Virus record (IMG/VR): IMGVR_UViG_3300042309_000903
Source of the DNA: an uncultured virus (IMG/VR IMGVR_UViG_3300042309_000903)
Taxonomy: Duplodnaviria > Heunggongvirae > Uroviricota > Caudoviricetes
Strand: one strand, 5' to 3'
DNA length: 64,000 bases
The position numbers and the translations under genes are program-made. Shown piece by piece: positions 7,245 through 51,223 of the stretch. Position 1 is the first letter of the stretch, and each line of letters starts with the position of its first letter. Below the pieces are notes generated by a model. The model had not been told where the DNA came from and searched no databases. It was given only the letters and a program-made list of their open reading frames with translations.

Positions 7245-9220
7245 TTTGCTTCTCCCCAACGTTGAACTGTTTTGATATCAGCAATTAGTGGGACGTTTAA
7301 AATGTCTATGCCTTCCATTGCAGTTCTGATGGCGTCCTCGGTTTCCTTAACAAGATGGTCTGGGCACAGCGTAACTAGTTCATCGTGGACGGTCAAGATT
7401 AGCTTAGATTCTTCGGGAAGTAGCCCGTGAGCCCGAACCATAGCCAATTTAATAATATCTGCTGCTGACCCCTGGATTCTAGTGTTAAAAGCTTGACGTT
7501 CAGCTCCAGCTCTAATCATGCGGTCGTTAGAGTTAATCTCAGGAAGGTAACGCTTACGCCCTAAAATGGTATAAACATACGCTGGGTTGCTAGCACGAGT
7601 AACCGCCAAAACCTTTAATCGGTACTTGTTTACAGCAGAAAAAGTCTTAGAGAAGTCACCAAGCAGGTCCTTAGCCTCTGTTACAGAACAACCAATAGAA
7701 CGAGCAATCTTATCTGGACCAACACCATACGCCATGGAAAGAACAAGAACCTTTCCAGCCTTTCGGTCAACTCCCATGGTGTCTCCGACTGTGGTGTATA
7801 TGTCTTTACCTTCTAAATAATTAGCCATCATAATTGGGTCCTCAGACATAGAGGCAATAACTCTAGGCTCAATCTGAGAGTAGTCAGCCACAACTAACTT
7901 GTAACCCTCTGGCGCATAAAACAAGTTACGAATAGATTTGCCGTGAACCGTGTGAGGAGCAGGTACGTTTTGAAGATTAGGGTTACGGCTTGAGAACCGA
8001 CCTGTCTCAGCGCCATGCTGAATAAAATCACAATGAATTCGACCGTTTATAAGAAGGCTGTCTTTATGCTCAACCTTAGACTTTCCGCCAGTAGTTCGTG
8101 TTACGTCTCCACCTAAATAAGGAACTACATATGTAGTAAGCAACTTGTTTAAGTCTGCGTAAATAAGTAAAGCAGTAACCAGCGGGTCTTTATCTCTATA
8201 AGGCTCTAGTGCCTCTGCTGCAACAGAGTAATCTGCGTAAGTTAACTCTTTACCCTCTTTATCCCGTGTATTTCCACGCAAGGTAAGCACCTTGGGAGTT
8301 AGGCCTCTACCGCCTTCTGCCTTAGGTGCATACAATAAATACTGCTTCTCTTGGTTTGAGTTCATATTGAACTGACGCCCAGCGGCAATAAAGACATCTG
8401 CTTTAGCTTTTTCAATATCTTCTACAAGTTTTTCGTGAAGCTCCTCTAAAACAACCATATCAATTGGTGCCCCAGTAAGCTTCATAGAACATAGGACGTT
8501 TAAAACATCCATCTCTAACTTCATTACTTTTTGAAGGTTGCTCTCAGTGAGTCGTGGGTTTAAATTCTTCCACAATAAAAACGTGTACTTTGCGTCAAGG
8601 TAGGCATACTTTGCTACGTCAGTAAATGAGTGCTTTTCTACCTCTTTACCGACACCCTTAACCATGTGATAACCAAACTCACGTGCTAAAGAATCTGCTA
8701 GGCCTACTTTATTTTTGTTCTTGTTATCTAAAATAAAAGAACCAATCATCGTGTCAAAGTACGGACCTACTGGGTACTTGTTCCCGTAATACTTTGCTAC
8801 GGAGGTTAAATCAAAGAGTAAGTTGTGCCCTATCTTTAAAATATCAGGGTCAAACATAAGTGGCTCTAAAGCCTTAAACACATCGGCAGGAAATAACTGT
8901 TGTGGCGCATCGCCAAAAACATACGTTGCTTTTTTAGCGTCTCTAGAATAATCACTAGGTCTGGCAGGGAGCCCCTTTTCTACGCGTTTTTCTCCCTGAC
9001 CAGTTAGTGGGTAAACCACATCTAGTAACTCTCCGTGAGGATGTCCCATTGGGATAACGTCTGCTCGCCCGTGTGTGGCTAACGTAATCCACAAAACCTC
9101 ATTTATTGGAGTATCACCACGACGGTCACCTACAGTTTCAACGTCGTACGCAAAAGCATCAACCTTTGAGTAGTGGTCGACTAGTTCTTGTAGTTGTTTT
9201 TGAGTCGTAATGATATTCAT
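7241..9220 (-). CDS. polA: Family A DNA polymerase with 3'-5' exonuclease (no 5'-3' exonuclease)
   Basis: YDVET, GHNLLFD, YAYLDA; ADYSQIEPR, RKAGKVLVLSMAYG, VHDEL. Confidence 0.95.
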   Translation of the reverse strand: MNIITTQKQLQELVDHYSKVDAFAYDVETVGDRRGDTPINEVLWITLATHGRADVIPMGHPHGELLDVVYPLTGQGEKRVEKGLPARPSDYSRDAKKATYVFGDAPQQLFPADVFKALEPLMFDPDILKIGHNLLFDLTSVAKYYGNKYPVGPYFDTMIGSFILDNKNKNKVGLADSLAREFGYHMVKGVGKEVEKHSFTDVAKYAYLDAKYTFLLWKNLNPRLTESNLQKVMKLEMDVLNVLCSMKLTGAPIDMVVLEELHEKLVEDIEKAKADVFIAAGRQFNMNSNQEKQYLLYAPKAEGGRGLTPKVLTLRGNTRDKEGKELTYADYSVAAEALEPYRDKDPLVTALLIYADLNKLLTTYVVPYLGGDVTRTTGGKSKVEHKDSLLINGRIHCDFIQHGAETGRFSSRNPNLQNVPAPHTVHGKSIRNLFYAPEGYKLVVADYSQIEPRVIASMSEDPIMMANYLEGKDIYTTVGDTMGVDRKAGKVLVLSMAYGVGPDKIARSIGCSVTEAKDLLGDFSKTFSAVNKYRLKVLAVTRASNPAYVYTILGRKRYLPEINSNDRMIRAGAERQAFNTRIQGSAADIIKLAMVRAHGLLPEESKLILTVHDELVTLCPDHLVKETEDAIRTAMEGIDILNVPLIADIKTVQRWGEAK

Positions 9221-37173: not shown

Positions 37174-37196
37174 AAAAGGCCCCCTTTCGGGGGCCT
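37174..37196 (-). terminator. Intrinsic terminator
   Basis: aggccccc-gaaa-gggggcct-ttt on the minus strand. Confidence 0.8.
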
Positions 37197-37201
37197 AAGC
37201 T

Positions 37202-37375
37202 CTACTTCTTTTTAATCTTTTTTACAATCTTCTTGTCTAAAGCTGTGTCTTCTTCTTGGGATTTAGGCTTCTTGTGCTTCTTATCCATAGCCTCAAACTT
37301 CTTCTTTTGGTCCTTATCTAGGCCCTTAGTAGTTTTGGCATCTTGCTTTTTATCGGACTTTGCTGTGTATTTCAT
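37202..37375 (-). CDS. Small Lys-rich protein (57 aa)
   Basis: MKYTAKSDKKQDAK...KKIKKK; TAATG coupling. Confidence 0.7.
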   Translation of the reverse strand: MKYTAKSDKKQDAKTTKGLDKDQKKKFEAMDKKHKKPKSQEEDTALDKKIVKKIKKK

Positions 37376-37666: not shown

Positions 37667-38200
37667 CTAAGCTTGTGCGTACGCCAAGAACTGAACATCA
37701 TTGACAAGCTCGTCTGGCATTAATTGTATCAAGTCTAGCGAAATAATTGTATGGCGTTCGGCTATCTGCCCGTGTTGTTGGGTGCGAACTGGGCGGTATA
37801 CCTGGCCTTGCCAAACAAGGCGGTACTTGTTGGCTATGTCTAGGCTGGTCTTAACCTCTCCTCTGGCATTAAAAAGGGTTGGGCTAGCTATCCTTAGGTC
37901 ATCAATATTGAGGGTAATGTGCAAAGAGTCGGCGTTGTAGAAACCGCGGTCATTTATGGCTGAAGTTCCCTGGGTTATCTTTGCGCTAATAATATTAAGG
38001 ATAGCTGGGCCAGTCCACACACGACCAACACCTAGAGGCTCTACATCGTAAATAGGGTCTTTAACAGAAGCCGCAGCGTTATACGCCCACCATTGTCCGG
38101 TAGTACCCTTAGGATTAGTTGAGTCGGCGGTTATGCCATCGGCAATTTCATTTAGCTCAAAATCTGTGCTAAATCTTCCGCCCGGGGTATATGCTCTCAT
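37667..38200 (-). CDS. Head closure/head-tail joining protein, putative
   Basis: DPIYD....G.GR.W..P, RGFYN.D.L, R.VW...VY.P; position in the neck module. Confidence 0.55.
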   Translation of the reverse strand: MRAYTPGGRFSTDFELNEIADGITADSTNPKGTTGQWWAYNAAASVKDPIYDVEPLGVGRVWTGPAILNIISAKITQGTSAINDRGFYNADSLHITLNIDDLRIASPTLFNARGEVKTSLDIANKYRLVWQGQVYRPVRTQQHGQIAERHTIISLDLIQLMPDELVNDVQFLAYAQA

Positions 38201-38202
38201 TT

Positions 38203-38718
38203 TTATATTATAGGGCTAAATTTAGTAGATTCATCGCCAAAAACAAAGGTAGTTATTGAGTACCGTTCTCCCCCTAAAACTGGAAACACTTGATGCTTAA
38301 GGTGAGCACTATGGATAACCATGCTTCCTGGCCTTGGGGTAACGCTTAGTCCAAGGTCTGGATATATCAGCTCTCCCCCAGTAAAGGTGTCATTTAAATA
38401 AATAGCAATACCAAAAACTATTGTTCTTGGGTCATCGGGGTTTCCGCCGTCTGTGTGCGGCCACATAAACTCTGAATCTTTTAGTTTTCGTAAATCACGA
38501 GAATAGACTATTGACTCTATATTAGTAAAAAATGTTTCAATATTTTTATACAGATTGTTCATTTTAACAAGTGACTCATCACTCATAGCTTTAACTGTAT
38601 TTCCTACGTGCGTAGTATCCCAATCAATATCTAGTTGAGCCTCAGATACAAGGGTACTTCTCAGCTCTTCATCTAAAAACCCCTCAATTTCGTACACACC
38701 TTCTCCGTGCTTTATCAT
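38203..38718 (-). CDS. 2OG-Fe(II) oxygenase, P4Hc-like (#7)
   Basis: HTD...YLNDTFTGGEL...HQV...RYS. Confidence 0.9.
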   Translation of the reverse strand: MIKHGEGVYEIEGFLDEELRSTLVSEAQLDIDWDTTHVGNTVKAMSDESLVKMNNLYKNIETFFTNIESIVYSRDLRKLKDSEFMWPHTDGGNPDDPRTIVFGIAIYLNDTFTGGELIYPDLGLSVTPRPGSMVIHSAHLKHQVFPVLGGERYSITTFVFGDESTKFSPII

Positions 38719-38720
38719 GA

Positions 38721-39389
38721 TTAGTTATACTTGCTACTGTTGATGTGGCAAATTTCAATTTCATTTATATTAACATGGCTTGGTAACGACCCTACCCAGT
38801 AGATAGCTTCTGCTAAATCCTCTGCAGTTAAGGCGTAGTCTCGTTTTTGCTCTTGGGTATCAATGGTTGCTGGACAAATTTCTGTAATTTTAATGCCAAA
38901 TTGAGGAAACTCAAGCCTCATTGTGTCAATTAGACCGCGCTCACCCCGCTTGGCATTTGTGTAATTCCCCCCACCGCGATACGGCACCTTACCGCCAAAA
39001 GAGGTAATAAAGACAATTGTTGGGGAGTCTGACCTCTCCATGCAGGGAACAAAAAGTTGAGAAAGATACATAGGGCCAGACACGTTTATATCGTAGGCTC
39101 GTCTAAAGTTATCCATGGTTTCATTGATAATGTTAGTTGGGCTAGAGCCGCCACCAGCATTATTAACCAAAAGGTCTAGTGTTATATCTTTGTACTGCTC
39201 ATAAAATCTCTCTATTGCTTTAGCGTCTGTTACGTCTAGGCTATATACCTCAACGTTGTCAGATACAAGCTCAGATACTTTGGAAAGGTTTCTTGAAACA
39301 GCAATAACTTTGTAACCATTTTCAGACAGGCGTTTTACTGTAGCTAACCCTACGCCTTTACTTGCTCCAGTAACAATTGCTGTTTTCAA
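38721..39389 (-). CDS. Short-chain dehydrogenase/reductase
   Basis: TGASKGVG, LVNNAG, S, YTNAK, ICP. Confidence 0.92.
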   Translation of the reverse strand: MKTAIVTGASKGVGLATVKRLSENGYKVIAVSRNLSKVSELVSDNVEVYSLDVTDAKAIERFYEQYKDITLDLLVNNAGGGSSPTNIINETMDNFRRAYDINVSGPMYLSQLFVPCMERSDSPTIVFITSFGGKVPYRGGGNYTNAKRGERGLIDTMRLEFPQFGIKITEICPATIDTQEQKRDYALTAEDLAEAIYWVGSLPSHVNINEIEICHINSSKYN

Positions 39390-39391
39390 CG

Positions 39392-40018
39392 TTAATGAAT
39401 CCAGTGCTGAGGCACCATTATCTTTTCGCCACTCTTCACTAAGTGTGCTGTGTGATGGTATGGCGGAGATGGTGGGAAAACAATAATGCTTCCAGCTTTT
39501 GGTTTGATAGCAAAAGTGTAGCTTCCTTCTTGTTTTGCGATTTCAAAATCTGGGTTTGGACTAGCGTTTTGTAATACGCCATCTGGAGAAGCAATCGTAA
39601 AAGATAGCTCTCCGCCCTCATAATCATCGTTTAAGTACATAACAAAAGATACTTTAAGACGGCCATCGCCCTCTTGTTGGTCAAAGTGAGCACCCATATA
39701 TGTGCCTGCCTTATACTTTTTAATTGGATACATTGGAAACAGTTTAGGCTCATCTGTGATGCCGTGGGCTACCGCGTAATCTCTTGCTACATCATCAAAA
39801 GCCTTTTGTAATGTAGAGTAGATATAGGTCTTCTGAATGTCTGACGGGTCCGCAAAGATACTCTTATCTGTTCCATAGACATACGCCTCACCACTACACG
39901 CCATCCATTCGCCCCAAGGGTTTTCATTGTCCTGGTCAATTGCAGCAACAAGTTTCTTTGGGTCGTCAATTACGTTTGTGTAGTAGTAAACTTTTTCTTC
40001 AAGTATCTCTCTGTCCAT
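39392..40018 (-). CDS. 2OG-Fe(II) oxygenase, P4Hc-like (#6)
   Basis: HFD...YLNDDYEGGEL...HTA...KIM. Confidence 0.9.
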   Translation of the reverse strand: MDREILEEKVYYYTNVIDDPKKLVAAIDQDNENPWGEWMACSGEAYVYGTDKSIFADPSDIQKTYIYSTLQKAFDDVARDYAVAHGITDEPKLFPMYPIKKYKAGTYMGAHFDQQEGDGRLKVSFVMYLNDDYEGGELSFTIASPDGVLQNASPNPDFEIAKQEGSYTFAIKPKAGSIIVFPPSPPYHHTAHLVKSGEKIMVPQHWIH

Positions 40019-40029
40019 TTTGTGTCTCC

Positions 40030-40689
40030 TTAGTACTTATTTTTTTTATAGTGGTCTTTTTCTTTAATGAACCCAACAAGAACATACCTTATTGGTCCAT
40101 CCCCTACGTGCTTGACCCCGTGCTCATACTCTTCGTTCCCTGGAAAAAATAACATAGTTCCTGGCTTGGGCTTTAGCTGGATGTCAAGGTTTGGAAAAAA
40201 TAATTCGCCATCTGCGTAGTCATCATTAATATACACAATCGTAGCGTATTTTATAGACGGGTCTGTTCTTTGGTCAGTATGCGCTTTTAACTCTACTCCT
40301 GGTTGCATTCTTTGAATTGTTGCAAAACCACTTAAAATTAATTCTGGGTCGGCTTTTACCACCATTGAGTTTAAACCATCGTATAGTGGTCTATATATCT
40401 CATGATGTAATATGTTAAAGTTTTTATCTTTCCAATTTTGAGTGATTTCAAACTTGCCTTCAGCAACTAAATTATCAACGTCGTCTCTGCCAAATTTTTC
40501 CATGCAAAAACTTGCTAAGTTTGAGTAGTACTCTACTTCCCAATCTTTTTGAGATGTACCATTTATAATGTCCCAAAAGGTAGTTATTTGGTCTTCTGAT
40601 AAAAAGTTTTCAACAGAGAACAGCTCTGGAGTAATATCCTTAACTACATACCCGCTATCTATTAACTGTTGTTTAAATGGCTCAATCAT
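40030..40689 (-). CDS. 2OG-Fe(II) oxygenase, P4Hc-like (#5)
   Basis: HTD...YINDDYADGEL...HGV...RYV. Confidence 0.9.
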   Translation of the reverse strand: MIEPFKQQLIDSGYVVKDITPELFSVENFLSEDQITTFWDIINGTSQKDWEVEYYSNLASFCMEKFGRDDVDNLVAEGKFEITQNWKDKNFNILHHEIYRPLYDGLNSMVVKADPELILSGFATIQRMQPGVELKAHTDQRTDPSIKYATIVYINDDYADGELFFPNLDIQLKPKPGTMLFFPGNEEYEHGVKHVGDGPIRYVLVGFIKEKDHYKKNKY

Positions 40690-41436
40690 TTACAGCTCGT
40701 CTGCTTTGTACTTATTTCCAGCCGCGTCCAGCTTCCAACCCTGCTTAAGCAGCTCTTGCCACTCTGCTCTTTCAATTTCTTGTTGCGCTCTAGTGGCCTT
40801 CATCTCTTCAGCCCACGCATCTCTTAATTCCTGTGGGTAATCCGACTCTTCTCTATCATCCCAGAAAGACCCAATGGTGTATCTGACCCCGCCTGTTATA
40901 AGAGATACTTCGTGCATATTGTTAAACCCGCCGTCAAATACAGCAAGCATTCCAACTTCTGGTTTAATCTCTATGTTTTGTGCTGGGAACCGTAAAAGTC
41001 CCCCATCAAAATCATCGTTAAGGTATAGAAAGCCTGCGTAGCGGCTTCTTGTAAAAGCGCCTGAGTTACCTTCAGCGTCTGTATTGTCAGAGTGAACTCT
41101 TGCGTACGCTCCTGGCTCCCACTTTTGTGTGTGGTATCCAATTTTACAAATTGTTTTTGGGTCAAGGTCATGTACGGAAGCAATTGCTTCAGGCATTGCC
41201 TTTTCAATATCTGAAAATATGGTTGGAGATAGGCCAGCGTCAATGACCTCTTGGTCGTTGTCTTGTGGCAAAACTGAAGAATAGGACTCGTAAAATGAGA
41301 TTGGCATCCAAGAAATTGCTCCACTGGCTGCTTGAGCATCTAATGCTTGAATCATCTTTGTGCAGTCGTCTTTGTTTATAAAGTTTTCATAAACAACTAT
41401 GTCTTTTGTTATTCGTCGTTTGTTTGCTAGGTTCAT
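40690..41436 (-). CDS. 2OG-Fe(II) oxygenase, P4Hc-like (#4)
   Basis: HSD...YLNDDFDGGLL...HEV...RYT. Confidence 0.9.
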   Translation of the reverse strand: MNLANKRRITKDIVVYENFINKDDCTKMIQALDAQAASGAISWMPISFYESYSSVLPQDNDQEVIDAGLSPTIFSDIEKAMPEAIASVHDLDPKTICKIGYHTQKWEPGAYARVHSDNTDAEGNSGAFTRSRYAGFLYLNDDFDGGLLRFPAQNIEIKPEVGMLAVFDGGFNNMHEVSLITGGVRYTIGSFWDDREESDYPQELRDAWAEEMKATRAQQEIERAEWQELLKQGWKLDAAGNKYKADEL

Positions 41437-41451
41437 TGTGCTTTACTCCGT

Positions 41452-42225
41452 CTAGTTATTTATAAGGGATTTATCTCCAGCAATAAGCTTTTCTATTTCC
41501 TGTTGAACAAGGGCGTACTCTTCATCAAACACTTCTGGAGTTCTGCCCTCTCCCATAGCGGCAGGAGTTCCTTTAGCTATTAAATCTTCTTTTAGTGTCT
41601 TTTCAATATCGTAGTTTAATACTGTGCATTGAAACCAGTTGGCAACATACCCATCTCTATCAATAAGGTACTTTTCAAAGTTTCCGCCCTGCATTGCTCC
41701 ATTAGCTACAGGTTGGTTTAGCCAAGGTGACAAGTACCCATCTCTATCTGGAATACCAAGCTCTTTTTGCTTTGCAGCGTACGCAAGCATTTGGTTTGAT
41801 ATCTCATTATATAGTTCGTGAGTTTCTTTTCGTGGTTGACCTAGGCCGTTTACAGAGCTATCTCCCTTGTGTGGACTTAGCTCAGTGGCACTCTTATTTG
41901 GGTTTGACGACACCATCTCTGAGAACTTAAATGTGGTTCCATAAACTTCTTGGCCATATTCTTGTGAGTCTAGGCCACAGGTAATGCCTTCAGACCACTT
42001 ACCCTTAGTGACTCCAGGGCCACAGAAGTCATTGGTAGGGATAGCAATAACTTGGAAATCATCTCCACCGTATTTATCTTGAAGCCATTGGAGAACTTCC
42101 ATTTGATTAGCGTTACCACAGCCTACGGTTGTATTAGCCAATAGGGTGACTTTACCCTTAAATTGACTTAAGAAATCAGGGGTGCCCTCAGCCGAGTTAA
42201 GCGGGATATCGTAAATTGATTTCAT
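41452..42225 (-). CDS. Glutathione peroxidase-like protein (divergent, Cys type)
   Basis: SIYDIPL...FKGKV.L.AN...GCG, IPTNDF, NFEKYLIDRDG. Confidence 0.85.
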   Translation of the reverse strand: MKSIYDIPLNSAEGTPDFLSQFKGKVTLLANTTVGCGNANQMEVLQWLQDKYGGDDFQVIAIPTNDFCGPGVTKGKWSEGITCGLDSQEYGQEVYGTTFKFSEMVSSNPNKSATELSPHKGDSSVNGLGQPRKETHELYNEISNQMLAYAAKQKELGIPDRDGYLSPWLNQPVANGAMQGGNFEKYLIDRDGYVANWFQCTVLNYDIEKTLKEDLIAKGTPAAMGEGRTPEVFDEEYALVQQEIEKLIAGDKSLINN

Positions 42226-42246
42226 ATGTTTTATTGTACCCCGTCA

Positions 42247-42921
42247 TTACGGCTTTCTATCCCCTGTATGCGCTGTAATTTCCCAAAAGAAAGGGCACGT
42301 AAATCTTAAGCCGCTTTTGATTTCAGTAACCCCATGGATATAGTTTTTATCCCCAGGGAAGAAGTAAGCGGCACCTTTTTTAGGTTTAAACTGCACGCCT
42401 TGTAGGGGGAAGTAGAGTTCTCCGCCCTCATAATCATCGTTTAAGTAAAACAAACTTGATAGGTCATAGTTTGGGAAGTCGTTGGGTGTTCCAGCGTCAG
42501 GGCCTTCATGAAGCTCTTTATCAGCATGGGGGTTTTGAAATTGTCCAGGAAGCCATTTAACAATGGTCGTACCCGTTGGGATAACCTCTACCTTATAAAA
42601 CTCTTCAATAATTGGCCTTAGTCTTTGAAATAGGCCTGCAATTATTGGGGATATCTTTGGGTCATTTTTATCCAGGGTGGGCTGAGTAGCAACTCTATCT
42701 TTCCAATAGTCTGAGTCATATGTAACGGTACCGTTCTCATTCGTATGGCTTTCGGTAACATCCCAAATGGTTAAAGATTTGGCGGCTTTTTCTAAAAACT
42801 CTATTTCCTCTTGAGTCATAAAGTTTTCAAGCTCAACAATCATGTCCTTGCTATCCCCAAACCAGCCTGATGGGGTTATAGATGGTGTTCTTTGAACTAC
42901 CTTGTATGAGCTTTTATCCAT
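42247..42921 (-). CDS. 2OG-Fe(II) oxygenase, P4Hc-like (#3)
   Basis: HAD...YLNDDYEGGEL...HGV...RFT. Confidence 0.9.
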   Translation of the reverse strand: MDKSSYKVVQRTPSITPSGWFGDSKDMIVELENFMTQEEIEFLEKAAKSLTIWDVTESHTNENGTVTYDSDYWKDRVATQPTLDKNDPKISPIIAGLFQRLRPIIEEFYKVEVIPTGTTIVKWLPGQFQNPHADKELHEGPDAGTPNDFPNYDLSSLFYLNDDYEGGELYFPLQGVQFKPKKGAAYFFPGDKNYIHGVTEIKSGLRFTCPFFWEITAHTGDRKP

Positions 42922-42923
42922 TT

Positions 42924-43640
42924 TTATATTGTATCCCTTTTCGTCTTATCTATGACCCCTAATTTTAGTGCCTTTACCTCATGAGAACCTAAGGGCTCTT
43001 CTTTTTCATTTACAGCGTCTCTGTACCAGTCTGTCCATTTTCCAGCAGAGTTTATCTTTTGTGCAGCCTCCCCATAGGACATATTTGCGTTTAATCTTTT
43101 GCTGCCTGGGTCTTGGTACTCAACAATTTCAATATTTGTTCCGTTTAAACTTGACAAAGATATAGGGATAATTGTGGCAACGGGAGTTCCTGCTTTAATT
43201 ACGACTCGTTTATTTGCAACCTTGGCTTTAATAGCTAAAGGCAAGGGGTTGTCATAAAAAGAAGTACTAATTAAAGACGACATTGTCTCAAACTCATCGC
43301 TAAAATAATTTACGGGATTAATGGTAAAAATACTGACCGCTTCATCTGTTCTAAAGACTAGCCCGGTGTTTAAACTTATAGAGGATTGACCCCTACCAGA
43401 ATAAGCACCTTCTGGACTAAACACTTGAACACGGTCTGGTGTTTGGTCGTTTACCCCATCCCAAATAAACTCAATATCTTCTACACAAGACAAACTCCAG
43501 CCAATTACATTTGACTGGGTTACTGGAAAGCATCTATAGGCATGATTCTCTGATGTTGCGTCCATCCAGTCTCTTTTAATTGACATAGGCTGAACATCAA
43601 ATAAAGCCCCATGTGTTTTTTCAACTGATATATTAAACAT
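42924..43640 (-). CDS. DUF6065-like protein
   Basis: KRDWMD...HAYRCFPV...N..GW; IKAGTPVATIIP. Confidence 0.7.
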   Translation of the reverse strand: MFNISVEKTHGALFDVQPMSIKRDWMDATSENHAYRCFPVTQSNVIGWSLSCVEDIEFIWDGVNDQTPDRVQVFSPEGAYSGRGQSSISLNTGLVFRTDEAVSIFTINPVNYFSDEFETMSSLISTSFYDNPLPLAIKAKVANKRVVIKAGTPVATIIPISLSSLNGTNIEIVEYQDPGSKRLNANMSYGEAAQKINSAGKWTDWYRDAVNEKEEPLGSHEVKALKLGVIDKTKRDTI

Positions 43641-44296
43641 TAATCTGCGTCTGCACTATACATTTCTGGCGTGTGAAACTTTTTGCTGTAATCAAGCATT
43701 GTAACAATAGAGTACTTAGTTCCAGAAGTTACTGGCATTGCTTGATGCGGGTACATAAAGTTTGATGGAAAAATAAACAGGTCTCCAGCCTCTGGCTTAA
43801 CCTTTAAGCCTTGTAATCTAAAATAAAGCTCTCCACCCTCGTAGTCATCATTGACGTATGAAACTAAAGACACAGTACAGTTGTAGGAAAACCCGTGGTC
43901 GTGGTGCTCCATAAAGTGTTGGCCAGGGCCGTATTTAATAAAGTTAAACGCTTCCCAGTACTTTAAGTTATTAATGTTATACATTCTTGAATAATCTTGA
44001 ACTGCAGGCAGCTTAACATCGTATAGGTCTTGCCACAAAGCCTGTAGGTTTAAACTAACCTGACTCTTGTCATGTTCAATGTCTGTTTTTTTAAACTTAA
44101 AGTCGTTGCAGTCTCTATACTCTGGCATAAGTTGTTTATAGCCAACATACGCAGGTTGCCACGCGTACCCAGTCGTATCTCCCTCTGGCTTAAGGTTTGC
44201 CTCAATTCTATTTACAACATCAATCTCTTTATTAATTACGCCCTTATAACGGAATATCCCATTACCTAGGTCTTCTTTACCCGTCCATGTAGACAT
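43640..44296 (-). CDS. 2OG-Fe(II) oxygenase, P4Hc-like (#2)
   Basis: HHD...YVNDDYEGGEL...FPSN..YPH...KYS; start at MSTWTG (GGGAG SD). Confidence 0.9.
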   Translation of the reverse strand: MSTWTGKEDLGNGIFRYKGVINKEIDVVNRIEANLKPEGDTTGYAWQPAYVGYKQLMPEYRDCNDFKFKKTDIEHDKSQVSLNLQALWQDLYDVKLPAVQDYSRMYNINNLKYWEAFNFIKYGPGQHFMEHHDHGFSYNCTVSLVSYVNDDYEGGELYFRLQGLKVKPEAGDLFIFPSNFMYPHQAMPVTSGTKYSIVTMLDYSKKFHTPEMYSADAD

Positions 44297-44306
44297 TATA
44301 TTCTCC

Positions 44307-45074
44307 CTATTTGTACTCTCGTCTGGACCAAACTTTATTTTGATATACCCCGCCATCAGGCTGTCGGTAAAACTGCATGTTATTAACCATTTTATCATAC
44401 ATCGTGGATTGGTCTAAAATTTCTACCTTGTGTTCCCAGTTTTCTCGTTTAAAAGGAAGAACCTGCATGCAGGGAGTTCCCGCCGGTAATGTGCCTTCCC
44501 AACCTTCCGAAATAAAAAATGGAAAGGTTCCAAGTAAGTGCACCTTATCAGCGTCTACAACCCCAGTGGTATTTAAAAATGGTAAATCAAATCTATTCAT
44601 TGGAGTCATAAACAACGCGCTGTACCCATCTGGAAGTTCTAACCCCCAGGGAATACTCCAAGCAAAATGATTTTGATAGTACCCGTTCGGATGCTCAAAT
44701 TGAGGCATAGGAGGGCGCGGAGTACAAAAATCTTTATAATTAGGGTCATCAATCTTTACATCTATGATTCCCTGGCTATTTTTATAAAAAACTAAATCGC
44801 ACGGTGTTTTAAATACGTATCCAGTTGTAAAAGCGTCCATAATTGCGGGACACGCTTTCCATGTAGGAATCTTTCCGTAGTCATCTGTTGTGCCTTCTTT
44901 AGGGAACGGGCAAACCTCTTTTGGCGCTTTGTAGTACTCCCCGTTTGGCATTTTTGCAAATCTATCTGCGTTTTTATACCAGTCTGGGATTTCTGTTTGT
45001 GTTGGGGCAGGAGAAGAAATGTCTCCTTTTTTTATCCAAGGTCTAAAGGGTCTAAATATGGCAGTCAAAGGCAT
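44307..45074 (-). CDS. DUF6065-related / dUTPase-like-fold protein
   Basis: P.WYK, TWKACPAIMD...GY, PMNRFDLPF...GVVD.D, GTP..QV.PFKRE.W. Confidence 0.65.
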   Translation of the reverse strand: MPLTAIFRPFRPWIKKGDISSPAPTQTEIPDWYKNADRFAKMPNGEYYKAPKEVCPFPKEGTTDDYGKIPTWKACPAIMDAFTTGYVFKTPCDLVFYKNSQGIIDVKIDDPNYKDFCTPRPPMPQFEHPNGYYQNHFAWSIPWGLELPDGYSALFMTPMNRFDLPFLNTTGVVDADKVHLLGTFPFFISEGWEGTLPAGTPCMQVLPFKRENWEHKVEILDQSTMYDKMVNNMQFYRQPDGGVYQNKVWSRREYK

Positions 45075-45781
45075 TATTTGTGCCCTAACTCGTTAATATC
45101 TGTCATAACAACGACGCAATACTTTGTCCCTGACACCATTGGAAGGGAGGCATGCTCGTAGATGTAATTTGAGGGGAAGACCGCAATGTCTCCTACTTTT
45201 GGCTTATAAACTAAGTTATCAAGCCTTGGGAACTTTATATCCCCGCCCTCGTAGTCGTCGTTAATGTAAATAACAGCAGACACTGTGCAGTTATACGCTG
45301 GGCCGTGGTCTGCATGAATATTAAAGTGGGTGCCGCTTCCCTCGTACTTTACAAAGTTAAAGGCCTCGTAATATACAACATTAATACCCCAGTATCTAGC
45401 GTAGTCGTCTATGCAGTATTTAAGCTTTTGGTATATCTCCTCATGCAGGTCTATAAGTTCAGCGTTTGATTCATCTTTAGGGCCAAGGTTTTCCTGCTTA
45501 TACTTAAAATCTACGCAGTCTCTTGCCCGCTTAACTGGGACATCAGACTGCGTAACTTGCGCCTCTGACCACTTGTATTTGTTGCCTGGTGATAGGTTGG
45601 ATTCAAGAGTGTTAATGTATCTTGCAGCATCTTCACTGGAAAAAGTGTTTTGGTAAACGTGTAGTCCCAAACCTAAATTTTTAACACTTACCTTATCGTT
45701 TAGAGCTCTCTCAGGAACTCTATTTGACGCGGTCTCTGACCTATCTTTTGTAAACCAATGGTTTTCGTTTTCGTTATGCAT
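45074..45781 (-). CDS. 2OG-Fe(II) oxygenase, P4Hc-like (#1)
   Basis: HAD...YINDDYEGGDI...FPSN.IYEH...KYC. Confidence 0.9.
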   Translation of the reverse strand: MHNENENHWFTKDRSETASNRVPERALNDKVSVKNLGLGLHVYQNTFSSEDAARYINTLESNLSPGNKYKWSEAQVTQSDVPVKRARDCVDFKYKQENLGPKDESNAELIDLHEEIYQKLKYCIDDYARYWGINVVYYEAFNFVKYEGSGTHFNIHADHGPAYNCTVSAVIYINDDYEGGDIKFPRLDNLVYKPKVGDIAVFPSNYIYEHASLPMVSGTKYCVVVMTDINELGHK

Positions 45782-45799
45782 TTTTTACCGTCCTATAAA

Positions 45800-46045
45800 C
45801 TAATTAAGTGGCTGTCTTTTCCATTTTCCAATAGGGCATTCTGCATCTGCAAGCGTTGTTTTTAACGGCATAATGCACCCGCATAGTTTACAGCTTTTTG
45901 TAATTTTAATGAGGTTTTCACAAGACATGCATTCATCAAGTCTTTTTTTAATAATCTCCTGGTCATCAAGCTTTTTACCAGAATCAATCAAGTGCCACGG
46001 CCTTGAGTCTCCAAGAGAGGCCTTCCAGTCATTCCATTTAGACAT
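45800..46045 (-). CDS. Small Cys-rich protein (DUF6171-like); paralogue of 21118..21345
   Basis: RLDECMSC...CKLCGCIMPLKT......CPIGKW. Confidence 0.8.
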   Translation of the reverse strand: MSKWNDWKASLGDSRPWHLIDSGKKLDDQEIIKKRLDECMSCENLIKITKSCKLCGCIMPLKTTLADAECPIGKWKRQPLN

Positions 46046-46048
46046 GGG

Positions 46049-46480
46049 CTACTCTGGGGCAGTAAACGTTGTGCCATCCCAAATAGAGCCACGAACAACG
46101 GTTTGACCCTCGGGCACTCTAAGAATAATAACTTCTTCTTCAAAAGCCGCAGCGTTCATCAAATCTGTGTGACTATTTTTTGGAGATACCGTCGTTAAGA
46201 AAATTGCGTTGTCTACTAGGAAAGAGTACCTACCCCAATCAGGAGTATCGTTGTGTCTTTCAGGTACTTCTCCTCCAGTAAACGACTCGCCGTCCCAAAC
46301 TGCTCCAGGGTATACGTTTGCAATGTCTGTAGTAACCATTGTTGTTATTGGAAGCCCGCTATCTAGCGCACTTTCAATACGCTGAATTAAAAGGTCTGCT
46401 TTAGGGCTCTCAAGGTGTAGCATATTAAAAACTTCGTAAGAGTCTTCAGATATTTTTGTTGCATACGCATACGTACTCAT
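46049..46480 (-). CDS. Fibre accessory/chaperone-like protein with duplicated G..WDG..FT motif
   Basis: PGAVWDGESFT and RGSIWDGTTFT. Confidence 0.65.
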   Translation of the reverse strand: MSTYAYATKISEDSYEVFNMLHLESPKADLLIQRIESALDSGLPITTMVTTDIANVYPGAVWDGESFTGGEVPERHNDTPDWGRYSFLVDNAIFLTTVSPKNSHTDLMNAAAFEEEVIILRVPEGQTVVRGSIWDGTTFTAPE

Positions 46481-46521
46481 TAAGTTCTCCTTTTGTAGTT
46501 ACTTAATAAATATACCATATC

Positions 46522-47415
46522 TTAGAAAGCGCACGAACAACCGCACCCTGCACCGAAGTCATACAAACAGAAATAGCAATCTGACCCACATCCACCAAAG
46601 GACGGGAAAGATGGCGGGAAGAACGGCGGGAAGAACGGCGGGAAGAATGGGAAGAATGGTGGGAAGAAAGGAGGAAAGAAAGGAAAGAACGGGAAGAACG
46701 GCGGGAAGAATGGCGGAAAGAATGGGAAGAATGGGAAGAACGGTGGGAAAAACGGCGGGAAGAATGGGAAAAACGGAGGAAAGAATGGTGGGAAGAACGG
46801 AGCAGTAGTATTAACGGTGCCTGTCACGGCTGCATCTGAGGTACCTACCGAAGTAATAGCCACAATAGTGTAGGTCTGTGAGCCTGGGGAGGTAGCGGAA
46901 GGGGTGTTATCTGTAGCGTCATAGGATACCGCTGAGCCCGAAATACCAGAGTAAGTCGTTCCGTCAGAACCAGTAATTGTATAAGAGGTAATTGCGCTAC
47001 CGCCGTTGGCTCCAGCAGTCCAACTAATTCTGTTAACGTTTGCAGAAAGTGCAGCGCCAGAAACTGATTGTGGTGCTTGTGGCCTTGTTGTAATAGCAAT
47101 TGCAGAAGAGGCAGTAGAGGCCGCAGAAGTTCCTGCAGCATTTGTAGCCGTTACTGTAAATGTTACAGATGCGCTAACAGGAATGCCAGTAACTGTAATT
47201 GGAGATGATGACCCGCTTGCTGTTTGGCCTGAACTTGCTGTTACTGTAAAAGAGGTGGCTGCAGGAGAAAGTGCTGGTAAAGAAAATGAAACAACCGCTG
47301 CTCCATTGTTATAGGCTCTGCCTGTTCCAACGTTTGAAGCGGATACGCCTGTAGGAGCTAATGGCTCTAAAAAGTCGTTTGAAGCCTGTGACTTTTTTCC
47401 AACTCTTTTACCCAT
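46522..47415 (-). CDS. FN3-domain fibre protein with C-terminal (P/PP)FF repeat and 6-Cys tip
   Basis: Two FN3-like modules, then a 68-aa Pro/Phe repeat, then GGCGSDCYFCLYDFGAGCGCSCAF. Confidence 0.8.
   Translation of the reverse strand: MGKRVGKKSQASNDFLEPLAPTGVSASNVGTGRAYNNGAAVVSFSLPALSPAATSFTVTASSGQTASGSSSPITVTGIPVSASVTFTVTATNAAGTSAASTASSAIAITTRPQAPQSVSGAALSANVNRISWTAGANGGSAITSYTITGSDGTTYSGISGSAVSYDATDNTPSATSPGSQTYTIVAITSVGTSDAAVTGTVNTTAPFFPPFFPPFFPFFPPFFPPFFPFFPFFPPFFPPFFPFFPFFPPFFPPFFPFFPPFFPPFFPPSFPSFGGCGSDCYFCLYDFGAGCGCSCAF
46597..46800 (-). repeat. Coding tandem repeat of PFF / PPFF units (19 units, the last two with Ser)
   Basis: ggaagaa(c/t)gg-type 9/12-nt units with synonymous codon variation. 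Confidence 0.95.
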
Positions 47416-47436: not shown

Positions 47437-49569
47437 TTAAGCCGTCAAGTCGCCAAAGACAACCCAGGTATTTTCTGCTCTTTTGAAAAGGGTGCACGAA
47501 GACCATTGGGTTCTCAGTTTTAATCCTGGTGTTGCGTTTACTGTTACTCCAGCAGCTCCAGCAATTGTTACCTGTCCTGTAGAAGTTTGAAGGATATCAA
47601 TTGATGTTCCTACTGGGAAAGCTACTGCTGAGTTTAATGGGATAGTAATTGTTGTAGCACTTGCATTGGCAACTTCAATTAAGTCATCTCTCTCAGTTAG
47701 AGAAGAAAGTGTGTATGAAGCTGTCTTTTGAATAATAGGGGTACGTGATGGAACACCTTCAAGGGCCTGTGTTCCATCTGAAAACACAATTCCTGCGGCA
47801 GGAAGCGTTACAGTTCCTGTAAATGTTGGTGAGGCTAGAGGCGCCTTATCTCCTAGAGCAGCGGTAAGGCCTGAAATCTTAGACTGGGCAATTTCTGCTG
47901 ATGCATTAATATCCCCGTCAACAATTGTTCCATCTGCAATCTTTGCTGATGTAATTGCCCCATCTGCAATAGAGAATGTATTACCAGTTAGTGTAAGTGC
48001 GCTACCTGCTAAGTATGTTCCAGCACCTGAGAACTGAACGAACTCTATAGCATCGGTTCCAATAGTTGCAGGGGTATTAATTTGTACCCACCCACTATTA
48101 GCCTGAGTGGTACCTTGGTCTACGAATACGAAGTCACCAGAATCAACTTCTGCTGCTGTATCAAAATCTGTAGCACGAGTTGGTGCTCCATTTGGCTGAA
48201 CAATGTAAATACCATTTTGAGATGCTGTACTTTGATTCTTTACAAGAATTCTGTCGTTATGTGCAAGAGTTACTCCATCAAGAATATCGCCTGCCTCAAC
48301 TTGACTGCTAAGGTTTACATTTTCAGTTGTTGCTGCTTTTACAGATGGATGAACATGAAGCCCTTCTACTGCAGAATCTACATATGCCTTAGTTGCTGCA
48401 TGAAGAGATTCTGTTGGTGCACCTGATAGTGTAATTGCCCCTGTCATTGTTCCGCCAGCTAAAGCAAGTTTTGCTGCAAGGTCGGTAGTAAGGTCTGCAA
48501 CCTTGGACTGGGCAATCGCGGCTGAGGCGTTAATGTCAGCATTTACAATTGTTCCATCTGCAATCTTTGCAGAAGTTACAGCGCTATCTGCAATTTTTCC
48601 TTCGGTGACTGCTAAATCTGCAATTTTCCCAGTAGTAACTGCAAGTCCACCAATTTCGTTAGTTCCAACTGAGTCATCACCCATCATTGACTGTGAAATT
48701 GTGTTTGCAGGAAGGACAACTGTTCCTGTGAAAGTCGGGCTAGCCAATGGTGCGTAAGTTGTAGCAGCAGTTGCAGAGGCAAGTTTGTTGTCTAAAGCTG
48801 TTTGTGTTGCTGTAGAGATGGGCTTGTTTGCATCTGAGGTGTTATCTACGTTTCCTAGTCCTACATCTGATTTAACTAGTCCAGCGGGGGTAGTAATTGT
48901 TTTATTTGTAAGAGTTTGAGTTCCAGTTGTTGTTACAAGAAGACTGGTATCTACTATCCCGTGTACATCTAAAGTGTCTGTACTGTGTGTACCAAGTGAT
49001 GTAGAGACTGCGTTAGCGGCTGCTGTATCAGCATATGATTTAGTTGCAAGGTCTGCTGTATCTGCAATTCCATGCACAGAAGTTGTGTCTGAGTTATGTG
49101 TTGAAACTGAGGTATCTGCATATGTCTTTGTAGCAAGTGTTGAAGTGTCTTCAATTCCATGCACTGAGGTTGTGTCTGAGTTATGCGTTCCTATTTCAGT
49201 TGTTACGTGCCCTTGTGTAGCTAGTGTTCCTGTTGCATCTGGAAGAGTCAGTGTTCTATCTGCTGTAGGGTCTGCTACTACAAGAGTAGTTTCAAAATCA
49301 TTTGCGGTTGCGCCTTCAAATATAAGGTTGACACCAGTACCCAAAGACACTGTGCCAGTAAAACTAGGGTTAGCAATCGTAGCGTAGAGGCTTGCTGCAG
49401 CTGTTGGAGTTAGGGTGATATAAGGTAGAGAAGCCCAAGCTGTAAGACTGTCTCCAACTTTAAGCTTCTTACTGTCAGTTTCTACACCAACTTCACCTTC
49501 AAGAAGAATTGGGTTTGAAGCAGTCCACTCAGCCGCAGTTCCTCTGCGTAGTAGGATATTAACTGCCAT
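47437..49569 (-). CDS. Long fibre protein (neck/whisker or tail) with internal repeats
   Basis: N-terminal RRGTAAEW...GEVGVETD..KLKVGDS..W..LPY (Mtd/hyaluronidase-N-like); KIAD repeats; C-terminal GDL domain. Confidence 0.8.
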   Translation of the reverse strand: MAVNILLRRGTAAEWTASNPILLEGEVGVETDSKKLKVGDSLTAWASLPYITLTPTAAASLYATIANPSFTGTVSLGTGVNLIFEGATANDFETTLVVADPTADRTLTLPDATGTLATQGHVTTEIGTHNSDTTSVHGIEDTSTLATKTYADTSVSTHNSDTTSVHGIADTADLATKSYADTAAANAVSTSLGTHSTDTLDVHGIVDTSLLVTTTGTQTLTNKTITTPAGLVKSDVGLGNVDNTSDANKPISTATQTALDNKLASATAATTYAPLASPTFTGTVVLPANTISQSMMGDDSVGTNEIGGLAVTTGKIADLAVTEGKIADSAVTSAKIADGTIVNADINASAAIAQSKVADLTTDLAAKLALAGGTMTGAITLSGAPTESLHAATKAYVDSAVEGLHVHPSVKAATTENVNLSSQVEAGDILDGVTLAHNDRILVKNQSTASQNGIYIVQPNGAPTRATDFDTAAEVDSGDFVFVDQGTTQANSGWVQINTPATIGTDAIEFVQFSGAGTYLAGSALTLTGNTFSIADGAITSAKIADGTIVDGDINASAEIAQSKISGLTAALGDKAPLASPTFTGTVTLPAAGIVFSDGTQALEGVPSRTPIIQKTASYTLSSLTERDDLIEVANASATTITIPLNSAVAFPVGTSIDILQTSTGQVTIAGAAGVTVNATPGLKLRTQWSSCTLFKRAENTWVVFGDLTA
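48945..49190 (-). repeat. Three imperfect H.SDTTSVHGI.DT..L repeats in the fibre
   Basis: HNSDTTSVHGIEDT / HNSDTTSVHGIADT / HSTDTLDVHGIVDT. Confidence 0.8.
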
Positions 49570-49858: not shown

Positions 49859-51223
49859 TTACCCGATTACAACTACTCTGTAGGCGTTAGATGTTGGTGC
49901 AGATGCAAAGCCAAGTGTTACAGTGGATGTTGTTGCTCGCACGTTATCTACAATAACTTCTTCTCCAGTAGCCACTTCATAAACTTGAACGTGAACATCT
50001 AGTGTTCCTAGGTTGTGAGTGACTGTGTATGAAGTAGCTGAAGTTGAAAGTGTGGTTGAGTACTTTCGGGCTACTACGGTTGCATCAACAGAGATGGTGT
50101 TGGTTCCAACGACGATACCGTTACCAGCACCAATTGCAAAACCGTTAGCGTCTGTAGCAGCACCTGAGTTGGCAGCAAGCTTGATAGAACCGCCACCAGC
50201 AGCTGTTTGAAGACCACCTGTAGAAAGTGGGGCAAACGTGAAGTTAGTTCCTGTAAGAAGAACGCCGTTAGAGGCTGTGTAAGTTCCAGCTCCTGAGAAC
50301 TGTGCAAAAGTAAGAGCAGTAGTTCCTAGCGTAATAGCGTCGTCAGTAGTTAATACCCATCCGCTATTTCCGTTTACTGTACCTTCGCTAACAAAAGCGA
50401 ACATTCCAGCAGTTACGTCTGCGCTTACGTTGGCGTCTAGCGCACGGTCTGGAGCTCCAGAGGCTTTAACTACATAGATACCGTTTTCAGAGCCAGTAGA
50501 CTGGTTCTTAACAAGAATTCGGTCACCAGTAGCAAGAGTTACCCCATCAAGAGTATCTCCATTTTCAAGGTCTGTAGATAAAGTTACTGCTGCAGTTGTA
50601 GCTGCACGAACAGAGGCCTTAACATCAAGGCCCTGGGCAACAGAATCAACGTAGTTCTTAGTTGCAGCATCTTGTGCGCTTACTGGGTCTGCTACGTTGG
50701 TGATTAGCTGGCTGTTCATTGAGAACGAGCTGGTTGGAGCTGTTAAATCTGTAACCTTGTTGGTTGTAAGGATTACTGTTCCGCTAGCGTCAGGAAGAGT
50801 GATTGTGCGGTCAGCGGTTGGGTCAGTTGCAGTAAGTGTGGTTTCGTTACCGTCTGCTGTAGAACCTTCAAATACAATTGAAGAGTCTAGAGAGACAACA
50901 CCTGTGAAGACAGGGTTAGCAAGAGGAGCCTTTAGGTCAAGTTGACCTTGAATACCTGAGGTAACACCATCTACATAGTTAAGCTCTGTAGTGGTAAGGG
51001 TTGCGCCATCAAGGATGTTGATTTCTGCAGCATCTGCGGTTACGCCGTTAAGTCCAACAGCTTCCCAGATAGTGCCGTTATAAACACGCATTTCATTAGA
51101 AGCGGTGTTGTAGTAAACCTGGCCTGTTACAGGACTTGCTGGGTCTGTTGCTAGATTTTGAATACGAGCATTTTGAAGCTCGTTCTTCGTCAAATCAAGT
51201 GACGTTAAAAATTTACGTGCCAT
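49859..51223 (-). CDS. Fibre/structural protein sharing domains with 47437..49569
   Basis: NELQNARIQNL, GQVYYNT, DPTADRTITLPDA, DAATKNYVD, HNLGT.DV. Confidence 0.8.
   Translation of the reverse strand: MARKFLTSLDLTKNELQNARIQNLATDPASPVTGQVYYNTASNEMRVYNGTIWEAVGLNGVTADAAEINILDGATLTTTELNYVDGVTSGIQGQLDLKAPLANPVFTGVVSLDSSIVFEGSTADGNETTLTATDPTADRTITLPDASGTVILTTNKVTDLTAPTSSFSMNSQLITNVADPVSAQDAATKNYVDSVAQGLDVKASVRAATTAAVTLSTDLENGDTLDGVTLATGDRILVKNQSTGSENGIYVVKASGAPDRALDANVSADVTAGMFAFVSEGTVNGNSGWVLTTDDAITLGTTALTFAQFSGAGTYTASNGVLLTGTNFTFAPLSTGGLQTAAGGGSIKLAANSGAATDANGFAIGAGNGIVVGTNTISVDATVVARKYSTTLSTSATSYTVTHNLGTLDVHVQVYEVATGEEVIVDNVRATTSTVTLGFASAPTSNAYRVVVIG

Follow-up and report, generated by a model that had tools for sequence, protein, structure and literature searches.

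A virus-encoded prolyl 4-hydroxylase (P4H) accompanied by proline-rich proteins is a known theme: in the work of Eriksson et al. from 1999, PBCV-1 was reportedly found to encode a prolyl 4-hydroxylase along with Pro-rich repeat proteins, its presumed substrates. In plant extensins and mussel foot proteins, repetitive Pro/aromatic sequences have properties that depend on hydroxylation. Aquatic phage genomes carry very many genes for 2-oxoglutarate (2OG)-Fe(II) oxygenases, up to 24 in one cyanophage. In the available parts of two reports these multi-copy enzymes are common in aquatic phages and treated as auxiliary genes (PMC9146016, PMC9602691), and their function has been called 'cryptic' (PMC9301287) or, in the accessible text of one of these reports, uninvestigated (PMC9602691); a prolyl-dihydroxylase-like protein has been recorded in a virion proteome (PMC12801897). 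Here we analyse a 64,000-nt stretch of DNA from an uncultured virus (IMG/VR record IMGVR_UViG_3300042309_000903), hereafter the window, in which a gene for an FN3-domain protein with a C-terminal Pro/Phe (P/F) repeat precedes an island of oxygenase genes (positions 38203-47415). This module is a new version of the viral theme, widespread among uncultured relatives and undescribed in the literature we searched, and we propose, with a probability of about one half, that the P/F repeat is a substrate of the oxygenases.

Like PBCV-1, the window genome encodes P4H-type oxygenases and a Pro-rich repeat protein together, but it is that of a bacteriophage, carries seven oxygenase paralogues rather than one, has PFF/PPFF units without a Gly, Ala or Lys context, and places the enzymes directly behind the presumed substrate gene, together with DUF6065 proteins, a short-chain dehydrogenase/reductase (SDR) and a glutathione-peroxidase (GPx)-like protein. 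The likeness to extensins and mussel foot proteins is an analogy only; Phe rather than Tyr dominates the window repeat. The layout also recalls clusters for ribosomally synthesised and post-translationally modified peptides (RiPPs), in which a substrate gene is followed by tailoring oxygenases. Here, however, the candidate substrate is a folded FN3 protein of 297 aa and not a leader-core peptide, the product would presumably be part of a virion rather than a secreted peptide, and neither Pfam nor PHROG gave a protease or recognition-element family in the island, which leaves the RiPP-like arrangement of the original prediction as a loose analogy. The term DUF6065 occurred in no paper found by our literature search, and the titles and abstract beginnings covered by it described no P/F-repeat protein and no virion substrate for phage oxygenases.

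The repeat protein consists of a conserved N-terminus, two FN3-like domains, the P/F repeat and a Cys tip. Its PFF/PPFF units begin at residue 205/206 and continue to about residue 268-272, a stretch of about 65 residues as read from the translation, and are followed by the C-terminal tip GGCGSDCYFCLYDFGAGCGCSCAF with its six Cys, in agreement with what had been noted from the DNA alone. In the underlying DNA the repeat (9/12/21/33 nt) is imperfect and its codons vary synonymously (CCG/CCA/CCT, TTC/TTT), which is what a repeat translated in frame would show. FN3 itself scored below the cut-off in the window protein (22.6 bits vs 25) and above it in homologues (27-40 bits). The protein comprises two FN3 domains plus a tail, and the fibre label given to it is an assumption. 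Neither similar DNA nor a homologue of the repeat protein was present in 50,697 phage isolate records searched for near-identical DNA and by tblastn. A bacterial-genome scan with the repeat protein gave generic FN3 matches only, with the P/F repeat in 0/77 loci, and thus pointed to no host or prophage. A near-identical 37-kb record (G001) served as a stand-in for the window's assembly.

The seven 2OG-Fe(II) dioxygenases that had been predicted are all borne out: each passed the PF13640 gathering score (34.7-55.1 bits vs 27) and carries HxD, a distal His, a Lys or Arg at +10/+11 and a Y[LIV]ND motif. For the second of them, H131, D133, H184 and K194 are invariant in 38 orthologues. The open reading frame (ORF) called for oxygenase 2 (43640-44398) overlaps the preceding gene by 92 nt and most of 45 orthologues are 218-227 aa long; judging from these sequences its start is most likely at 44296 (218 aa), which removes the overlap. 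The solved structures nearest to oxygenases 2 and 3 were the B. anthracis P4H (the best relative of oxygenase 2, E 3.7e-5), the lysyl hydroxylase LH3, 6ax6, the human collagen prolyl 4-hydroxylase (C-P4H) alpha-2 chain and P3H1; for oxygenase 3 the matches were P4H, C-P4H alpha-2 and P3H1. The 6ax6 entry is a 235-residue chain titled 'procollagen lysyl hydroxylase and glycosyltransferase', which we take to be mimivirus L230, and 5c5t, a chain titled 'Prolyl 4-hydroxylase' and presumably the PBCV-1 enzyme, was among the weak matches. The match lists of oxygenases 2 and 3 contained no nucleic-acid oxygenase chain (AlkB, TET). The window enzymes have the H-x-D...H...K geometry in common with the collagen hydroxylases, but a Gly-X-Y repeat, a peptide-substrate-binding domain and a PDI-like subunit are absent here, and similarity is low, with E 4e-5 to 4e-2 over the matches of oxygenases 2 and 3 and E 4e-5 to 1e-3 for the best of them, P4H and lysyl hydroxylases. 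By these comparisons the window oxygenases are prolyl-hydroxylase-like. A complex prediction for oxygenase 2 with the A3 alignment, tail residues 201-262 and Fe scored 0.01 against a mark of 0.32, which speaks neither for nor against binding of the repeat.

In uncultured viral contigs the repeat protein had more than 371 relatives; the comparison covered 80 fetched loci and 32 more. A homologue was called in 79/80; 68 loci were non-duplicate, 62 had at least 1.5 kb downstream of the repeat gene and 47 held complete islands. An oxygenase gene was the first to fifth gene downstream of the repeat gene in all 62 assessable loci, and the pairing is thus conserved. The recurrent order is fibre genes, FN3-repeat gene, (WDG-motif gene), (Cys-rich gene), oxygenase, DUF6065b, oxygenase, DUF6065a, more oxygenases and (SDR). 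The tails themselves fall into several repeat types, PFF/PPFF, PPYF, P[SAN]FC, FAPPGF and a Pro-poor SPFGVFGF.

The enzyme set changes with the repeat. Counting a second locus set, which contributed 11 rows, the FN3 tree held 59 rows. Among the 38 with Pro-rich tails, two or more PF13640 oxygenases were present in 36 and one in the remaining 2, DUF6065 was present in 38/38, and a second oxygenase-like family, F5, occurred in addition in 1. F5 was found behind all 21 Pro-poor SPFGVFGF tails, none of which had two or more PF13640 oxygenases; at the Pro-poor loci the PF13640/DUF6065 set is missing directly behind the repeat gene. The oxygenase family thereby matches the repeat chemistry in 59/59 rows. 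F5 proteins are about 220 aa long, have no Pfam match and stand in one to three tandem copies behind the Pro-poor tails (L039:2278-4264, L053:11298-12589, L061:5756-8587 and 13 other loci). They carry the near-invariant motifs WHDHG...GHPH...R-I-T. An F5 model (predicted local distance difference test, pLDDT, 90) shows a confident 2OG-oxygenase fold, with 111 Foldseek matches at E<=1e-3, including PHD2, the P. putida P4H and, among the best, the thioholgamide peptide hydroxylase ThoJ, a further likeness to RiPP clusters; hhalign of F5 against the PF13640 group and DUF6065 gave probabilities below 1%. Because of its motifs and modelled fold, F5 appears to be an unrecognised phage oxygenase family.

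The size of the island also follows the repeat. Pro count and oxygenase count correlate across the 47 complete islands (Spearman 0.83) and within the 34 Pro-rich loci (0.63), both values being uncorrected for phylogeny. The shortest tails (L067 and L076; 38 residues, 13 Pro) are accompanied by an oxygenase 2 orthologue, DUF6065b and one unnamed gene, and the capsid protein of L067 is 85% identical to that of the window despite this smallest island. Fibres, repeat gene and enzymes form a block that precedes the sheath genes in L067 as in the window; L076, L070 and L039 have it ahead of the gene for a 1,200-aa protein and the portal gene.

Since related phages keep the pairing and change the type of enzyme with repeat chemistry, we regard the P/F repeat as the best candidate target, with even odds that the oxygenases tailor the P/F stalk of the repeat protein and of other appendage proteins. 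Gene content, catalytic motifs, a conserved adjacency and an enzyme family that goes with repeat chemistry are what we observe; a substrate, a chemistry and a place in the virion we infer as follows. The region would form the end of a fibre module whose FN3 appendage protein bears a C-terminal Pro/Phe stalk and a Cys-rich tip. Late in infection, the oxygenases would act on the polyproline-like P/F repeat, hydroxylating its prolines and possibly Phe beta-carbons, in the repeat protein and in other P/F-bearing virion proteins of the phage, the paralogues differing in the sequence context or the position that they attack. An extremely hydrophobic segment would thus become a stiff, more polar stalk, possibly adhesive or ready for glycosylation. 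A possible task of the SDR is to oxidise or reduce a hydroxylated product, and of the GPx-like protein to clear peroxides or assist in oxidising the Cys tip; DUF6065 is a possible substrate-holding partner. If this is correct, phage surface chemistry would extend to repeat stalks hydroxylated by enzymes, which would add a new layer to host recognition and virion stability. The P/F repeat is in itself an unusual protein material. The module gives the long-unexplained phage oxygenases a concrete, synthesisable substrate candidate, and natural controls exist in that a short repeat is paired with few enzymes and a Pro-poor one with another oxygenase family, which makes the question directly testable.

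A number of observations weigh against the P/F repeat as the substrate. The FN3 tree shows only three changes of repeat chemistry, two of them well supported; each time the enzyme set changes too, but with this number of changes the sign test cannot reach significance (p 0.5), and the 11 rows of the second locus set added no new change. With so few independent switches, shared ancestry could produce the association, a caution that applies equally to the uncorrected Pro/oxygenase correlations. DUF6065 accompanies the oxygenases in 34/34 Pro-rich complete loci, and its fold (below) hints at nucleotides. The matches to solved collagen hydroxylases are weak, as given above, and two enzymes assigned a part in the scheme are sparse, with SDR in 12 and GPx in 1 of the 47 complete islands and GPx in only six related loci. 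Fibre regions are hot spots for accessory genes, and adjacency alone is for this reason weak evidence.

The P/F element, moreover, is not confined to the FN3 protein. A pattern scan for PFFPPFFPFFP yielded at least 123 stretches, and the 79 new loci examined gave 98 ORFs with the repeat, 71 from the FN3-tail family and 27 others, among them contig-end fragments and unrelated proteins. Internal P/F linkers were seen in unrelated proteins of 959, 1383 and 1561 aa and in small ones of 254 and 322 aa. The P/F proteins of L170 and L243 lie 29-34 kb from the oxygenase cluster on the same contig, and four of five records with other P/F proteins have 1-13 PF13640 genes, a pairing at genome level that favours the proposal, the fifth being a fragment with an estimated completeness of 26%. 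The P/F element hence serves this phage group generally as a linker or stalk and is not special to the FN3 protein, and it may be just a lineage-typical linker. Given the distant P/F proteins, the enzymes, if they act on P/F at all, would act in trans, so that adjacency is not essential. The original prediction, in which the enzymes modify the repeat next to them, thus gains from the pairing, the family match, the dose relation and the P4H relatives, and loses by the few switches, the occurrence of P/F elsewhere and the DUF6065 fold.

The large multi-domain proteins with internal PFF/PPFF linkers are encoded at L170:6661-9540, L178:5245-9396 and L243:8679-13364 (minus strand), and in large multi-domain proteins the P/F linkers sometimes adjoin Pro-Thr linkers. 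Two P/F proteins of 971 and 1021 aa seem to end in a Hint-like domain (L239:3566-6481 and L230:530-3595), the one from L230 having PTF repeats.

An alternative that we consider doubtful is an accessory-gene island in a recombination-prone fibre region, with host proteins such as translation factors and ribosomal proteins, free amino acids or small molecules as substrates and with no link to the neighbouring repeat protein. It agrees with the treatment of multi-copy oxygenases as common auxiliary genes in the available parts of PMC9146016 and PMC9602691, with the SDR and GPx-like protein as typical metabolic cargo present in a minority of islands, with the P/F proteins far from the oxygenase cluster, with the small number of chemistry switches, and with the solved complex of the P. 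putida P4H and EF-Tu among the fold matches of F5. Cargo of this kind would not account for adjacency at every assessable locus, for an enzyme family that fits the repeat chemistry in every row, or for an oxygenase number that scales with Pro count also within Pro-rich tails. Nor does it explain why a short repeat goes with an island of one oxygenase, DUF6065 and one further gene on a near-identical backbone, or why the same block moves between two genome backbones.

It is unlikely, in our estimate, that the enzymes tailor another part of the virion (the long fibres, the Cys-rich tip or a glycan) with the P/F repeat as a passive linker. Between the upstream fibre genes of L022, L026, L029, L070 and L075, a DUF6171-like Cys-rich gene is again paired with an oxygenase gene, and in the cyanophages S-H9-1 and S-MbCM7 the order is short-tail-fibre gene, oxygenase, unnamed gene, oxygenase, the fibres having no extreme repeat. 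Some islands also hold sulfotransferase and glycosyltransferase-like genes. Yet the family and number of the enzymes vary with the chemistry of the repeat and not with the tip: Pro-rich tails come with the PF13640 set whether they are Cys-tipped, Hint-ended or without a tip, and loci with similar enzyme sets differ in their upstream fibres, which share only 38-87% identity. The additional enzymes in relatives' islands, which also count in favour of the main proposal, matched Asp_Arg_Hydrox (E 5e-11) and Sulfotransfer_2 (E 1e-6), and there was a weak N-terminal match to PF11397, a GlcNAc-transferase family that acts on hydroxyproline of Skp1. Sulfotransfer_2, Asp/Asn beta-hydroxylase-like and PF11397-like proteins were noted at L034:5893-6672, L058:11996-12601 and L061:7059-7928.

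Two DUF6065-like proteins had been predicted, and both were recovered, one through Pfam (DUF6065a at 42924-43640, PF19541, E 1.7e-25) and the other, which has no Pfam match, through phrog_7084 (E 2e-35) and an hhalign probability of 95% to the DUF6065a group. In an AlphaFold2 (AF2) model of DUF6065b (pLDDT 91), the top 10 rows of the VIA comparison were all dUTPases (Z 8.0-9.5), with dCTP deaminases at 5.4-6.5, and the Foldseek E was ~3e-3; on this model, DUF6065 has a dUTPase/dCTP-deaminase-like fold. Active dUTPases carry five catalytic motifs. By eye, the DUF6065b group keeps a 'G-I-I-D-x-D-K' stretch, which we liken to dUTPase motif 3, and a later Gln; the DUF6065a group lacks the Asp motif, and no C-terminal Gly-rich motif is visible. 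Residues W32, C75, G85, D93 and P207 are invariant across both groups. No fused or longer DUF6065 form was found at E<=1e-5, itself weak evidence, and an Atlas look-up of DUF6065b returned only unnamed viral clusters. Among phage isolates, which contained no P/F-repeat protein, DUF6065b homologues were restricted to 49 records of haloarchaeal tailed viruses (27-32% identity). In one of these, Halorubrum virus VOLN27B (L083), the homologue at 6872-7705 stands alone beside a ribonucleotide reductase gene, a position that hints at nucleotides but says little about function. A ribonucleotide reductase gene follows many of the islands as well, and two window oxygenases had Tet_JBP matches of 20.6-23 bits. 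Modification of a pyrimidine nucleotide or of phage DNA by DUF6065 and the oxygenases is nevertheless very improbable, since all seven oxygenases are PF13640 members with P4H-type Lys/Arg spacing and protein-hydroxylase relatives, the Tet_JBP scores fall short of the 34.9-bit cut-off, the Asp motif is wanting in the DUF6065a group, the window's island has no other nucleotide-metabolism gene, and the match with repeat chemistry would be left unexplained.

The remaining island proteins were mostly as predicted. The GPx homologue matched PF00255 (35.8 bits vs 27) over residues 4-110 of 257 only, and has a long insertion and a C-terminal extension; a Cys is present in 'VGCGNA', and the other catalytic positions look substituted by eye. 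The SDR assignment was confirmed by PF00106 (E 1.1e-40), and TGASKGVG and YTNAK, matching the TGxxxGxG and YxxxK motifs of SDRs, are visible in the translation. The small Cys-rich protein matched PF19668 (DUF6171) at 23.8 bits, below the cut-off of 27, and phrog_13558 at E 2e-15. The WDG protein had no match in Pfam or PHROG, and Atlas gave a weak lead to tail-fibre assembly proteins (0.76-0.78).

The tails of the 68 non-duplicate loci end in a 4-8-Cys tip (31), in nothing further (21), in a Hint/intein-like domain (11) or in another long domain (5). The WDG gene lies behind 20/31 Cys-tipped tails and 0/31 others (Fisher 2e-8, uncorrected), with small unrelated genes in its place at other tips. 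Because it occurs only behind Cys-tipped tails, a pattern typical of fibre-tip assembly factors, the WDG protein is probably a tip-specific accessory, a predicted assembly factor or adhesin. The Hint-like ends, among them those of L026, L046, L053, L058, L062, L068, L071, L072, L075 and L079, are about 150 aa long, start with C[IV][DE]..T right behind the repeat and close with HNK or HNL at the stop; Hint_2, Hint and Intein_splicing matches were sub-threshold, in four of seven long variants (E 3e-5 to 0.011). These sequences suggest that the end of the repeat is a site of self-cleavage or thioester-mediated transfer, and the Hint-ended variants may accordingly represent self-processing appendages.

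Among isolates, the closest oxygenases are those of cyanomyoviruses (206 records, 27-38% identity over part of the protein). Like the window enzymes, the oxygenases of T4-like cyanophages (Kyanoviridae) are multi-copy and often lie beside fibre genes; unlike them, they are scattered, and some stand among repair genes. As an independent lineage, four cyanomyoviruses speak for the proposal in that their fibre and oxygenase genes are neighbours and one of the fibres has an Arg/Pro 'RQPRNFR' repeat: the S-SCSM1 row consists of four oxygenases, a tail fibre, a 'short tail fibre' with RQPRNFR, two unnamed genes and three oxygenases, and may be the cyanophage counterpart of the repeat-plus-oxygenase layout. 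This short tail fibre (L084:8081-9346) is 422 aa long with an insert of about 250 residues rich in Arg, Pro, Gln and Phe. In Sf-FS3 two oxygenases come after a fibre that carries an S74 domain. Two points tell against an appendage role here: the ACG-2014b oxygenases are found among genes for replication and repair, and in the parts available, PMC9146016 suggests DNA repair for phage oxygenases and PMC9146016 and PMC9602691 propose DNA repair or 2OG balance. Only tentatively, and with the expectation that it will rather fail than hold, do we extend the proposal for the P/F repeat to the multi-copy oxygenases of aquatic phages in general. They would then be appendage-tailoring enzymes, each aromatic stalk type (PFF/PPFF, PPYF, PxFC, SPFGVFGF and perhaps RQPRNFR in cyanophages) having its matched family, with or without sulfo- and glycosyltransferases, and DUF6065 recruited as a substrate-holding partner. 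Such phages would have hydroxylated extensin- or mussel-glue-like fibres, and chemistry, not only sequence, would set adsorption.

The region holds 15 minus-strand genes with intergenic gaps of 0-41 nt according to the ORF list and translation, in a window whose minus strand carries nearly every gene; the genes listed in the original prediction were all found, on that strand and at the expected positions (Table 1).

Table 1. Features of the oxygenase island and its surroundings (window coordinates)
Feature	Position	Strand	Basis
Upstream fibre-like genes: 710 aa (Mtd_N N-terminus), 94 aa, 454 aa	47437..51223	-	PF18454 E 1e-13; many tail-fibre PHROGs
FN3-domain protein, 297 aa, proposed substrate	46522..47415	-	ORF, repeat DNA, weak fn3 match, relatives
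WDG-motif protein, 143 aa	46049..46480	-	Two WDG motifs
Small Cys-rich protein, 81 aa, DUF6171-like	45800..46045	-	phrog_13558 E 2e-15; PF19668 sub-threshold
2OG-Fe(II) oxygenase 1, 235 aa	45074..45781	-	PF13640 40.2 bits; H156-x-D, H210, K +10, YIND
DUF6065-like protein b, 255 aa	44307..45074	-	phrog_7084 E 2e-35; hhalign 95%; dUTPase-like fold (model)
2OG-Fe(II) oxygenase 2, 218 aa from most likely start	43640..44296	-	PF13640 55.1 bits
DUF6065 protein a, 238 aa	42924..43640	-	PF19541 E 1.7e-25
2OG-Fe(II) oxygenase 3, 224 aa	42247..42921	-	PF13640 36.4 bits; motifs; weak PDB matches
Glutathione-peroxidase-like thioredoxin-fold protein, 257 aa	41452..42225	-	PF00255 35.8 bits, residues 4-110
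2OG-Fe(II) oxygenase 4, 248 aa	40690..41436	-	PF13640 34.7 bits; motifs
2OG-Fe(II) oxygenase 5, 219 aa	40030..40689	-	PF13640 42.8 bits; motifs
2OG-Fe(II) oxygenase 6, 208 aa	39392..40018	-	PF13640 46.7 bits; motifs
Short-chain dehydrogenase/reductase (SDR), 222 aa	38721..39389	-	PF00106 E 1.1e-40
2OG-Fe(II) oxygenase 7, 171 aa	38203..38718	-	PF13640 34.7 bits; motifs
Terminator-like hairpin, 8 pairs (7 G-C), T-run, strong	37177..37196	-	Terminator scan

The island had been placed between head-tail adaptor and head-closure genes, labels that could not be verified: it is flanked upstream by fibre-like genes (47437-49569, 49859-51223), on which side the capsid protein, portal and terminase are also encoded, and downstream by three small genes without family match, followed by tail sheath, tube, tape measure and baseplate genes. 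The upstream fibre genes travel with the repeat gene in relatives, as seen from locus synteny. In the 710-aa fibre (47437-49569, minus strand), the Mtd_N-type N-terminus is followed by three units of about 25 residues, HNSDTTSVHGI.DT..LATK.YADT. The hairpin closes a transcription unit made up of the fibres, the island and the gene at 37667-38200; there is no outstanding terminator-like site in the interior of the island, the region as a whole having 14 such sites against 12.9 expected from shuffled sequence. Between the gene at 37667-38200 and the terminator lies a 57-codon ORF that would encode a very Lys-rich peptide (37202-37375, minus strand) and may be a gene.

The window also encodes WhiB, RecA, a family A polymerase, a DnaB-type helicase and SpoVS. 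The WhiB family points to an actinobacterial host, and the source, an uncultured myovirus that encodes WhiB, thus probably infects an actinobacterium; the window sheath is 37% identical to the sheath of Streptomyces phages. The WhiB-family regulator and the SpoVS homologue are found at 4758-5078 and 1884-2168.

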